Shown piece by piece: positions 17,148-47,753 of a stretch of DNA of 64,000 bases (its first letter is position 1; each line of letters begins with the position of its first letter). A program made the translations under genes and the position numbers. Source of the stretch: a plasmid; the sequence record NZ_CP019224.1; one strand, 5' to 3'. The notes below the pieces were generated by a model. The model ran no database searches. It was not told the DNA's origin and saw nothing but the letters and a program-made list of their open reading frames with translations.

Positions 17148-18689
17148 TTGACGGTGGTTGAGCCGGGAGTGGATAAGGACGACGAGTCGCGCTGGCGCGG
17201 GCGCGGTCTGGGGCTTTCGACGCGGGTACAGGTGTCGGGGCACATGTTTTTCGCCCGTCGCGCGGTGGCGGCGATGACTCGGCGGCGGGTGCGGATGGAG
17301 GCCGAGCCGGGCCGGCGCCAGTCGATGGCGATGTTGGCGGGTGTGACGCTGACCGCTGTGCTGTGTCTGGGGGCGTTGTTCTGGTCGTTTGTGCGCCCGG
17401 CCGGTTCGGCGGGGCAGGCGCGGATTGTGGCCGATCAGGATTCGGGGGCGCTGTATGTGCGGGTGGGCGAGAAGCTGTATCCGGCGTTGAATTTGTCCTC
17501 GGCGCGGTTGATCGCCGGGGAGGCGGCCAGCCCGGTTCGGGTGCGCCGCAGCGAGATTGACGCAGCGCCGCGCGGGCCGCTGGTCGGTATTGCCGGCGCC
17601 CCGCAGGATATGGTGGCGACGTCGCCGGGTCGCTCGTCGTGGTTGGTGTGTGATGAGATCACCAAGGCGTTCGGGGCGGCTGCGCCTGAGCCGGTGACGG
17701 TGACCGTCATCGACGGCCAGCCCGAGCTGGGTCCACGCCGCCACGTGCTGGGCCCTGATGATGCGATGGTGCGCCGCTATGGGGATGCGGTGTGGTTGAT
17801 CCGCGATGGGCGGCGCTCGTTGATCAATCAGGGTGCTCGGGCGGTGCTGTTGGCGTTGGGGCTGGGCGAGGATGCGGTGTTGGGGTCGCGCCCGATGAGC
17901 CGGGCCTTATTCGATGCGATCCCGGTGGGCCCGGAGTTGTCGGTGCCGGTGATCCCGAATGCGGGCTCGCCGGCACGGTTCGCGGGGGCGCCGGGCCCGG
18001 TGGGGACGGTGGTATCGACTCCGCAGGTGGGTGGGCAGACCGCGTATTCGGTGGTGCTCACCGATGGCGTGCAGCCGGTGTCGCCGGTGGTGGCTCAGGT
18101 GCTGCAAAATGCCGGGCCGGCCGGTGCGGTGATCCCGGTGGTGGCTGGCCCGGTGTTGGCGAAGTTGCCGGTGGTGCAAACCCTGGACTTGTCGGCGTTC
18201 CCGGCTACCCCGCCGCGGGTGATCGATAGCCAGGTCAACGCCGCGGCGTGCTGGCACTGGGAGAAGGTGAGCGGTGAGGCGCTGGCTAGCACGTCGGTCA
18301 TCGCCGGCCCGAGCATCCCGGTGGCCGAGGGCCAAGTGGACAAAGTGGTGGACTTGGTGAAAGCCCCGGGGCCACAGATGCAGGCCGACCGCGTGTATCT
18401 GGGCCCTGAGTACGCCAATTACGTGGTGTCCACCGGTAATTCGCCGTCAGCGGCCACGGTGGAGTCGTTGTGGTGGATATCCGAATCAGGGGTGCGGTTC
18501 GGGGTGCCGCGCCAGGAGGACACGATGAACGCTTTGGGTTTGAAGAAGCATTCCCCGAGCCCGGCGCCGTGGCTGGCGCTGCGGCTGCTGGCCGCCGGGC
18601 CGGCATTGTCGCGCTCTGATGCGCTGGTGCGTCACAACACGCTGCCTGTCGATGCCAACCCGGCCGAACTGGAGGTCCCGAAGTCATGA
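17148..18689 (+). CDS. eccB: ESX type VII secretion membrane component EccB
   Basis: N-terminal ...LSTRVQVSGHMFFARR... EccB signature, single TM, large periplasmic domain; ATGA overlap with eccC. True start may be a few codons downstream. Confidence 0.9.
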   Translation: MTVVEPGVDKDDESRWRGRGLGLSTRVQVSGHMFFARRAVAAMTRRRVRMEAEPGRRQSMAMLAGVTLTAVLCLGALFWSFVRPAGSAGQARIVADQDSGALYVRVGEKLYPALNLSSARLIAGEAASPVRVRRSEIDAAPRGPLVGIAGAPQDMVATSPGRSSWLVCDEITKAFGAAAPEPVTVTVIDGQPELGPRRHVLGPDDAMVRRYGDAVWLIRDGRRSLINQGARAVLLALGLGEDAVLGSRPMSRALFDAIPVGPELSVPVIPNAGSPARFAGAPGPVGTVVSTPQVGGQTAYSVVLTDGVQPVSPVVAQVLQNAGPAGAVIPVVAGPVLAKLPVVQTLDLSAFPATPPRVIDSQVNAAACWHWEKVSGEALASTSVIAGPSIPVAEGQVDKVVDLVKAPGPQMQADRVYLGPEYANYVVSTGNSPSAATVESLWWISESGVRFGVPRQEDTMNALGLKKHSPSPAPWLALRLLAAGPALSRSDALVRHNTLPVDANPAELEVPKS

Positions 18690-46349: not shown

Positions 46350-47753
46350 ATGTATGTTCGGCGTGCTTCACCCTACTGCGGGTTTTGCCGCGACGACGGA
46401 AAGCTTGTCGTGGCCGAAGCACCCGCACACATCCTGGTCTCTGCGCCCACGGAAACGGGAAAGACGACCGGCGTGCTGGCGCCGGCCAGTGTGCTATGGG
46501 GCGGGCCCGCTGTCTGCGTGTCCAGCAAAGATGACCTGATGTGGTTGGTGTGCCAACGACGTTGGGGCCCAAAGCAAGTCATCGACTTACGCCCGGATTA
46601 CTCGCCGGTCTATCCCACCGACGCCGAGGTGCGCTCATTCGATCCGACCGCGCTGATTCGCACTCCGGATCAGGCGGTGACCACCGCCAACACCATGATG
46701 CAGATGTCCGCGGTCGGTCTGGGATCAGGAATCGACCAGGTCTCTGATGCCGGGATTTGGGAATCCAACACCGAGGCCCCGTTGGCGGCGATGCTCTATG
46801 CGGCCTCACCGTGCGGCAACGGCAAGGGCATCGAATGGGTGCTGATGGCCGTGGACAACCTCGAAGAAGACAAAAAGGCGCCCGACGCGCCAGGCTGGCA
46901 CAGCGCCGCCCGCTACGTGGCCCGTCAACCCTTGTTCCGCAACGCACTGATGCGGACCCTGGCCATGGACCCGCGCCAGCGCGACAGCATCGCCTTGACG
47001 ATGCGCAAAGCGGTCACCCCGTGGATGCGGTTAGGGCTGCGCGGGATGACCGAGCCCACATTCGACGAATCGTTTCTGTCCAACCCCGATGCCACGCTGT
47101 TCATCCTGGCACCGGCCGAAGGGTCCATCGCCGGCGCCGCGGTCACCCTGCTCGAGCACCTCGTGCGCAGCTGGCGCGGCAAGACCGCACGAAAAGAAAT
47201 GATGCACCGGCTGCTGATTGTGATCGACGAGGCGGCCAACGTGGCCCCGATGCCGGCCCTGCGCCGTCACGTTTCAGAGGGCCGGGGCCTGGGGGTCAAC
47301 CTTCTCTTGTCGGTGCAGGGGTCGAGCCAGTTCGACACGATCTATGGCAAGGCTTACGCCCAGGAGCTGCGCGACACCTTCCCGGCCGCCCTGATCATGT
47401 ACGGGGCCGCGGAGATGGAGATGCTGCAGCGCGCCGAGCAGTGGTCACGCGAAACCACCCGCCGCCAAGAGACTTTCGACCAAGCCAGCAGCGGCAAGAC
47501 ATTGTCTTCACACCTCGGTCCGAGTCTGGATTACCGGCGGCTGCTCCCACAAAACCTCGGCCAAGCACGGATGCTGCGGCGCGGCACAGCCGGCATCGCC
47601 ACCGAGCTTCCCGATTGGCCGGTTTTTGTCAAACGGTATGACAACGCGGTGAACAGGCTGCTACAAGCCGACCCGCCGGAGCGTGAACCAGAAACGATGT
47701 GGGAATGGGTATTACAGCGCCACCGCCGAGCCATGAAGGCGCTCAAGACATGA
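46350..47753 (+). CDS. type IV coupling protein (TraG/TraD/VirD4 family) ATPase, without N-terminal TM region
   Basis: Walker A SAPTETGKTTGVL within the first 40 aa, Walker B LLIVIDEAANVAP, T4CP-type C-terminal motifs (LLLSVQGSSQF). Confidence 0.8.
   Translation: MYVRRASPYCGFCRDDGKLVVAEAPAHILVSAPTETGKTTGVLAPASVLWGGPAVCVSSKDDLMWLVCQRRWGPKQVIDLRPDYSPVYPTDAEVRSFDPTALIRTPDQAVTTANTMMQMSAVGLGSGIDQVSDAGIWESNTEAPLAAMLYAASPCGNGKGIEWVLMAVDNLEEDKKAPDAPGWHSAARYVARQPLFRNALMRTLAMDPRQRDSIALTMRKAVTPWMRLGLRGMTEPTFDESFLSNPDATLFILAPAEGSIAGAAVTLLEHLVRSWRGKTARKEMMHRLLIVIDEAANVAPMPALRRHVSEGRGLGVNLLLSVQGSSQFDTIYGKAYAQELRDTFPAALIMYGAAEMEMLQRAEQWSRETTRRQETFDQASSGKTLSSHLGPSLDYRRLLPQNLGQARMLRRGTAGIATELPDWPVFVKRYDNAVNRLLQADPPEREPETMWEWVLQRHRRAMKALKT

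Follow-up and report, generated by a model that had tools for sequence, protein, structure and literature searches.

Can a mycobacterial plasmid that depends on two secretion systems for its transfer still move once an ATPase gene of one of them has been cut in two? The question is raised by a 64,000-nucleotide stretch of the plasmid record NZ_CP019224.1, referred to below as the window, which combines a type VII secretion (ESX) locus, ESX-P1, with an operon resembling a type IV secretion system (T4SS), a VirD4-like coupling protein gene and a MobF relaxase gene. Our analysis indicates that all 64 kb of the window are very probably conserved backbone from a plasmid of the pRAW type, akin to pMyong1 and pMK12478, that comes from slow-growing mycobacteria, most likely Mycobacterium intracellulare subsp. 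chimaera; its virB4-like gene has been split by an insertion sequence (IS), and self-transfer has probably been lost. The dual-system plasmid as such is already known and the window copy is near-identical to deposited plasmids, so that this part of the finding is a rediscovery; co-residence of a type VII and a type IV-like system is the published hallmark of pRAW-type plasmids and is by itself no new biology.

A split virB4-like gene in a pRAW-type backbone

Directly after codon 514 of its 993 codons, the virB4-like gene of the window is interrupted by an IS whose ends are 45-nt imperfect inverted repeats (84% complementary) that begin with TG and end with CA. The target-site duplication TGAG flanks it at 38687-38690 and 40267-40270, the empty site seen in pMyong1 and in three 100%-identical contigs has a single TGAG, and deletion of the IS together with one TGAG yields a 993-codon open reading frame (ORF) identical to an intact public protein (P0003). 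The ORF at 38755-40347 (530 aa) is the IS transposase, which matches the IS3 and IS481 family models below their cut-offs; it is not one of the membrane proteins of the operon. The minus-strand operon proposed at 35185-45165 does contain a VirB4-like ATPase and, judged by hydropathy, membrane proteins, but it is not continuous, the IS having been overlooked. Of the two remnants, the ORF at 40253-41812 covers the 5' fragment and ends in four IS-derived codons (MFCV) before its stop, and the largest ORF of the 3' fragment (37251-38543, 430 aa) bears the AAA_10 ATPase domain (62.6 bits, cut-off 27.5). This domain is confined to the 3' fragment, with the Walker A motif GALGYGKS (residue 611 once the protein is restored), and the predicted N-terminal membrane part and the ATPase domain lie on separate ORFs in the window copy. 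pMyong1 and pRAW each have one uninterrupted VirB4-like gene of about 1000 codons (1005 aa in pMyong1).

The insertion is real, recent and clonally inherited. To either side of 38691/40267, the match between the window and several public M. chimaera-type contigs is 100.000% for more than 11 kb, and with flanks that match IS-free copies at 100% identity, the insertion must be very recent. The IS itself has a 100%-identical counterpart on CP015274, a 39.9-kb plasmid of M. chimaera ZUERICH-1. The broken allele, a 519-aa product with four IS-derived residues, was found in 73 collection blocks (70 contigs), and the intact allele (P0003, 993 aa) in 547 blocks (512 contigs). An exact scan of GTDB representative genomes returned nothing for the IS junction, which was located instead via the exact truncated protein. 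This product is recorded as UCN07067.1 from M. intracellulare subsp. chimaera and annotated as plasmid-borne, on contigs of up to 97,268 bp; one draft contig with the broken allele extends 77 bp into the IS. One carrier of the broken allele, NTFW01000024.1, belongs to NTFW00000000, deposited in a paper on Chinese heater-cooler-unit M. chimaera belonging to outbreak subgroup 1.1. The IS-broken virB4-like allele was not found in the searchable literature, which is not proof of its being unpublished. The junction, GATTGGGTGAG followed directly by TGACGTGTG, offers a simple marker for the predicted transfer-defective plasmid variant in heater-cooler-unit M. chimaera.

The backbone around the insertion is that of known plasmids. 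Its ESX and T4SS-like modules share 98% nucleotide identity with pMyong1 (M. yongonense 05-1390) and 82-84% with pMAH135, pRAW and large M. chimaera plasmids, and the relaxase region shares 96% with pMyong1. All pMyong1 products of the ESX, T4SS-like and relaxase modules were found at full length with 92-100% identity, the sole exception being the virB4-like one. Compared with pRAW, amino acid identity ranged from 68% (MinD/ParA) to 95% (Esx), with 79% for EccC, 83-91% for the VirB4-like protein, 87% for TcpC, 82% for the coupling protein and 76.5% for the relaxase. pRAW of M. marinum E11 (PMC4173767) displays the same gene order, from NlpC/P60 genes through eccB to eccA, the virB4-like/tcpC operon and the divergent virD4-like gene, and then, again in the same order, the small VirD4 fragment, the MobF relaxase and DUF932. 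The ESX-P1, T4SS-like and relaxase markers of pRAW-type plasmids (Ummels 2014) are all present, with the virB4-like gene interrupted. The initial proposal of a pRAW-type plasmid with a dual T4SS-like and type VII requirement is therefore borne out by synteny with pMyong1, pRAW and pMAH135, and by publication as far as the requirement is concerned.

The relatives also differ in cargo. Between its eccA gene and its T4SS operon, pRAW has Pycsar/cyclase cargo, and a pip gene precedes its relaxase gene; the window lacks both. The pRAW cargo (L006 23077-25441) is made up of one gene for a Pycsar effector and two for nucleotide cyclases, and a 108-aa membrane ORF (34530-34853) stands in its place in the window. 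In pMyong1, a TnpB element follows the coupling-protein gene, and some 34 kb of cargo separates the T4SS region from the relaxase region; neither occurs in the window. We had considered that the relaxase region might be a mosaic from another plasmid, since similarity to pMyong1 ends at window position 50943, and rejected this because the 96% match resumes about 34 kb further on, so that pMyong1 carries extra cargo. To the left of the ESX locus (9090-12797), two more mobile elements distinguish the window from pMyong1, and both are also present in pMK12478.

Relatedness also crosses species borders. Over its first 12 kb the window matches the M. kansasii plasmid pMK12478 at 99.98% identity, and segments of 10-12 kb (compared over window 1-11971, 27251-38691 and 40267-64000) are 99.98-100% identical between M. 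kansasii plasmids (pMK12478, CP006836/CP089232) and M. chimaera-type contigs. At the sequence level, such near-identity fits a very recent between-species spread of the same backbone. Furthermore, the same relaxase and VirB4-like modules occur at 6.33-6.42 Mb of the 6.46-Mb record CP019885.1, where they adjoin a different ESX set (EspG, EccD, MycP, a 403-aa EccE and EccA); either a copy has integrated there, or the assembly has fused a plasmid with the chromosome.

The transfer apparatus and its predicted defect

The VirB4-like, coupling-protein and relaxase calls of the initial annotation all matched above cut-off in hidden Markov model (HMM) searches (AAA_10, T4SS-DNA_transf and TrwC/MobF), and the coupling protein, called at 46350-47753, was upheld by TraG-D_C as well. 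Its Walker A motif lies at residue 32 and TrwB is its only solved relative. Coupling proteins of the VirD4/TrwB type usually have transmembrane helices at the N-terminus. Hydropathy reveals no N-terminal hydrophobic segment in this protein; the 221-aa ORF (45682-46347), which has two such segments, stops 3 bp before the coupling-protein start codon, and the membrane anchor may be a separate polypeptide for which this ORF is a candidate. The 138-aa paralogue downstream corresponds to the small gene with some VirD4 homology described for pRAW (Ummels 2014; PMC4173767). The relaxase has the features of the MOBF class, namely a TrwC-type HUH domain with a three-histidine motif (HxDxx..HxH, 'HRDSRAGDPNLHTH') aligning to that of TrwC, tyrosine pairs YMY and YY within the first 60 residues, and a RecD-like helicase behind the TrwC domain; it is 99.1% identical to that of pMyong1. 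A 1963-aa relaxase had been annotated at 54582-60473; the MobF assignment stands (TrwC, NCBIfam MobF), whereas the start is more likely at 60440, as the 1963-aa form is not on record and the 1952-aa product starting there is. A TraA/MobF relaxase belongs to the conserved core of about 55 kb (Ummels 2014). Among short inverted repeats near the relaxase gene or between the divergent operons, none was convincing as a candidate origin of transfer (oriT).

The operon genes at 41886-45165 are 85-100% identical to pMyong1. The 689-aa polytopic protein, last in the operon, has no Pfam or NCBIfam match and is conserved (97% in pMyong1, 75% in pRAW). This apparatus resembles minimal Gram-positive T4SSs, such as Tcp of Clostridium perfringens pCW3, in its VirB4-like ATPase, VirD4-like coupling protein and TcpC (VirB8-like) as well as in its wall hydrolases and polytopic membrane protein, but HMM searches recognised no VirB6/TcpH, VirB3 or pilus genes in the window, and the pRAW-type system, unlike the minimal ones, requires a type VII system too.

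By homology, the MobF relaxase would nick a putative oriT and pilot one strand, which the coupling protein would pass to a membrane machine of the VirB4-like ATPase, TcpC and polytopic proteins, with ESX-P1 and the NlpC/P60 hydrolases handling the wall and mycomembrane, or mating contact. A chimeric channel built from the two systems is one possibility; another is that ESX substrates ready the mycomembrane, or the mating contact, for transfer. A 2025 review describes their cooperation as 'possibly a chimeric system'. pRAW transfers itself among slow-growing mycobacteria, and Himar1 insertions in its virB4-like gene (bp 90304, about codon 591) or in eccC-P1 abolished conjugation, both being complementable (Ummels 2014; PMC4173767). 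As pRAW lost conjugation through a transposon in its counterpart of this gene, the plasmid studied here is probably transfer-defective. The IS parts the membrane-associated N-terminal half of the VirB4-like protein from its ATPase half and leaves the other components intact, and we consider it likely that the IS-bearing copy no longer transfers itself unless helped in trans. Such a plasmid would be inherited vertically in the clone, with ESX-P1 still makeable.

Several observations weigh against this conclusion. The pRAW insertion lies just before Walker A, and the window IS leaves the 430-aa ORF with the whole AAA_10 domain and its Walker A motif; the transposase is co-oriented with the operon, so that read-through could express downstream parts; and homology to VirB4 is distant in any case (AAA_10 at about 63 bits; the solved VirB4 domain 4ag5 is matched at E = 0.002). 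M. chimaera strains hold multiple plasmids, VirB4 could be provided in trans by another pRAW-type plasmid of the cell, as complementation did for pRAW, and M. chimaera DSM 44623 and ZUERICH-2 do hold such a plasmid at about 84% identity. Finally, neither a rep gene nor an oriT was found within the 64-kb window, whose plasmid status comes from similarity and source annotation, and the 10-kb flanks inspected showed no rep gene either. The remaining ATPase ORF, the co-oriented transposase and possible help in trans leave some room for a plasmid that is still self-transmissible, either with VirB4 halves working separately or with an intact virB4-like gene elsewhere in the cell, but we regard this as unlikely: residues 515-563 and every N-terminal hydrophobic segment are missing from the 3' ORF, no second virB4-like sequence lies in the 64-kb window, and we know of no functional VirB4 split at the codon-514 position.

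Two other explanations concern the locus itself, and both fare much worse. That it is a chromosomal ESX-5 locus near unrelated mobile-element genes might be suggested by ESX core proteins that are nearest to ESX-5 structures and by the same module in CP019885.1, yet the whole 64 kb is syntenic with the plasmids pMyong1, pRAW, pMAH135 and pMK12478, the MinD/ParA and NlpC/P60 genes of the window are not listed for ESX-5 in published descriptions, and products identical to those of the window are annotated as plasmid-borne; we hold this to be highly improbable. We give hardly any credence to the idea that the insertion is an assembly or chimera artefact in a gene that is really intact. The IS is multi-copy and has its perfect match on another plasmid of the same subspecies, and repeats can mislead assemblers, but the 4-bp target duplication is clean, the inverted repeats are complete, and the junction-spanning truncated product is independently recorded in all the blocks counted above. 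An interrupted virB4-like gene and a probable loss of self-transfer thus remain the preferred reading.

The ESX-P1 locus and its kinship with ESX-5

The full ESX gene set initially placed at 17148-34522 was confirmed by Pfam matches and identities to pMyong1 (Table 1). From the NlpC/P60 genes to eccA, the ESX-P1 order of Ummels 2014 is reproduced with every gene at full length; eccD, mycP, eccE and eccA are 98.5-99.1% identical to pMyong1, and a simple pattern match gave two canonical Walker A motifs in EccC, at residues 508 and 890. According to the same paper (PMC4173767), esx-P1 starts with NlpC/P60 genes. At this head of the locus, pMyong1 and pRAW have two genes and the window three, the middle one being an extra paralogue. 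The last of the three is an NlpC/P60 (C40) peptidoglycan peptidase, and tblastn related the genes at this head to homologues in pMyong1 and pRAW. The first 157 residues of the middle product are 98.7% identical to the N-terminus of this neighbouring peptidase; its C-terminal half differs, and the product has no Pfam match.

Table 1. Coordinates of the features discussed, with the matches on which they were named.
Feature	Position	Strand	Remarks
TnpB of IS607-type unit	9090-10829	-	adjoining resolvase ORF
IS256/Mutator-family transposase	11442-12797
First gene at head of ESX-P1	13863-14837	+	N-terminus related to the next two
Second gene at head of ESX-P1	14901-16004	+	N-terminus related
NlpC/P60 peptidase	16090-17130	+	N-terminus related; Pfam NLPC_P60, 71 bits
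eccB	17148-18689	+	Pfam T7SS_ESX1_EccB, 479 bits; aa identity 99.4% pMyong1, 88% pRAW
eccC, single fused, 1408 aa	18686-22912	+	FtsK_SpoIIIE, 262 bits
PE	23006-23302	+	95% identical to annotated pMyong1 PE
PPE	23332-24486	+	Pfam PPE, 187 bits
WXG100 (Esx) pair	24630-24926, 24971-25255	+	100% identical to pMyong1, 93-95% to pRAW
espG	25334-26254	+	Pfam ESX-1_EspG, 90 bits
MinD/ParA-like (espI-like), 490 aa	26375-27847	+	Pfam CbiA, NCBIfam MinD-type; 68% to 497-aa pRAW protein
eccD	27844-29358	+	Pfam EccD and YukD
mycP (subtilisin-type mycosin)	29420-31075	+	Peptidase_S8
eccE	31075-32667	+	Pfam EccE
eccA	32690-34522	+	T7SS_EccA1_N and AAA
689-aa polytopic membrane protein	35185-37254	-	last gene of T4SS-like operon; about 7 hydrophobic segments
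virB4-like 3' fragment, codons 515-993	37251-38690	-	aligns to pMyong1 residues 514-992
IS, 1576 bp	38691-40266	-	rve-type DDE transposase (Pfam rve, rve_3)
virB4-like 5' fragment, codons 1-514	40271-41812	-	three hydrophobic segments
Three small proteins	41886-42170, 42191-42439, 42465-42692	-	2 hydrophobic segments each
TcpC/VirB8-like	42706-43632	-	Pfam TcpC, 33.5 bits (cut-off 27); N-terminal hydrophobic segment
404-aa protein	43649-44863	-
101-aa protein	44860-45165	-
Divergent operon	45264-47753	+	144-aa protein, 221-aa protein (2 hydrophobic segments), coupling protein
VirD4-like coupling protein	46350-47753	+	T4SS-DNA_transf, 56 bits (cut-off 20); TraG-D_C; TrwB_AAD_bind
VirD4-fragment paralogue, 138 aa	49597-50013	+	40% identical to coupling-protein residues 82-226
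MobF relaxase-helicase, 1952 aa	54582-60440	-	TrwC 269 bits, AAA_30 205 bits, NCBIfam MobF 218 bits (cut-off 100)
DUF932 gene	62144-63190	-	first of co-oriented array beside relaxase; Pfam DUF932, 202 bits
Repeat unit	63191-63598	-	terminator hairpin and structured element of about 350 nt, upstream of DUF932 gene
Element copies beyond the window	L013 464-8600; L005 3428-11789; L022 17075-23993; L023 1918-8991; L024 746-5093; L020/L021; L025-L061

By sequence comparison, EccB, EccC, EccD and EspG are nearest to ESX-5. Against solved structures, EccB scored 639 bits with EccB5, 324 with EccB3 and 161 with EccB1, EccC scored 1577 bits with EccC5, and for EccD and EspG the sole matches among solved structures were of ESX-5 (EspG5 for EspG). 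Chromosomal ESX-5 of slow-growing mycobacteria is thus the closest sequence relative of these four proteins, with a fused EccC in both, and the window Esx pair, which we take to be EsxM/N-like, would presumably be a further likeness. In contrast, ESX-5 has no MinD/ParA (espI-like) gene and includes multiple pe/ppe genes, cyp143 and a ferredoxin gene, whereas the window locus has a MinD/ParA gene, one PE, one PPE and a plasmid context linked to conjugation genes.

This mixture had been read initially as ESX-5-like sequence with an ESX-2-like extra ParA gene, in agreement both with our structure comparison and with the published description of ESX-P1, which gives ESX-5-like sequences, an ESX-2-like gene order and an extra ParA-type gene (Ummels 2014; PMC4173767). 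Its further reading as an 'ancestral plasmid-type ESX' equals the published model: the plasmid group, named ESX-P5 (Newton-Foot 2016), has been placed as sister to chromosomal ESX-5, and plasmid ESX loci have been proposed as progenitors of the chromosomal ones (Newton-Foot 2016; Dumas 2016).

A repeated structured element beside the relaxase gene

A co-oriented gene array beside the relaxase gene, a candidate leading region, has as its first gene the DUF932 gene, whose position is syntenic with pRAW, pMyong1 and pMAH135. The 400 bp upstream of this gene form a repeat unit that recurs seven more times just past the window end on the same plasmid. Each unit opens with an intrinsic terminator hairpin and its T-run; about 330 conserved nt follow, ending where the next gene has its ribosome-binding site and start codon. 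Most genes of the array (DUF932, DUF4192, DUF3560 and small ORFs) are preceded by the element, and all of them point toward the relaxase. Co-oriented arrays with 4-8 copies were also observed in pMyong1, pMAH135 and pRAW, in a plasmid of M. paragordonae and in a second one of M. chimaera, and a 31-nt core of the element was found exactly in 37 stretches of representative Mycobacterium and Mycolicibacterium genomes, mostly in multiple copies. The element has no match in Rfam 15 and was not found in the searchable literature, the latter not being proof that it is unpublished.

A fold of the element is supported by several lines of evidence. It forms a predicted hairpin of about 200 nt between two unpaired CCCTCACC boxes, and RNAalifold predicted 110 pairs from eight copies, 12 of them with compensatory double changes. 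On a 34-copy MAFFT alignment the consensus was poor, due to indels, and the structure was tested instead on 113 distinct copies with an HMM-anchored alignment (sequence profile only) and the eight-copy structure. Across 76 core pairs, 87.4% of cells were Watson-Crick; sliding the partners reduced this to 28-40%, none of 200 column shuffles exceeded 82.5%, and double changes occurred at 24 pairs against at most 17 in shuffles; relatedness of the copies inflates such covariation counts, so that covariation is supportive and not proof. In addition, the window copy folds far better than its shuffles, both as RNA (sense, z = -5.2) and as DNA (antisense, z = -4.8). Wobble pairs do not favour the template strand (257 sense G.U cells versus 305 antisense).

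The element may be a shared structured mRNA leader, or a single-strand promoter of a leading region comparable to Frpo. In Frpo, a hairpin on the transferred (template) strand rebuilds the -35 and -10 boxes and drives transcription from single-stranded DNA (Samuel et al. 2024; PMC11541004). The likeness to the Frpo/ssi elements of F-like leading regions is one of layout, with long conserved hairpins upstream of co-oriented genes by the relaxase, and the genes run toward the relaxase as expected for Frpo if the transferred strand is the template. Unlike Frpo, the window copy contained no convincing -10 or -35 hexamers in a scan for sigma-70-type promoters, and it could equally be an mRNA leader. 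The relaxase-proximal array could be the conjugative leading region, with the element serving early 'establishment' genes. The element would then indicate the probable place of the leading region in these plasmids and, with it, of oriT and the transferred strand.

Taken together, a wider picture can be offered tentatively, at somewhat less than an even chance: a sub-lineage of heater-cooler-unit M. chimaera in which plasmid transfer has been killed by the IS while ESX-P1 is intact, and in which the relaxase-proximal array acts as a leading region with a shared structured element. If this is true, the IS-broken plasmid would be a natural experiment in which the part that ESX-P1 plays in conjugation is separated from whatever else it may do.

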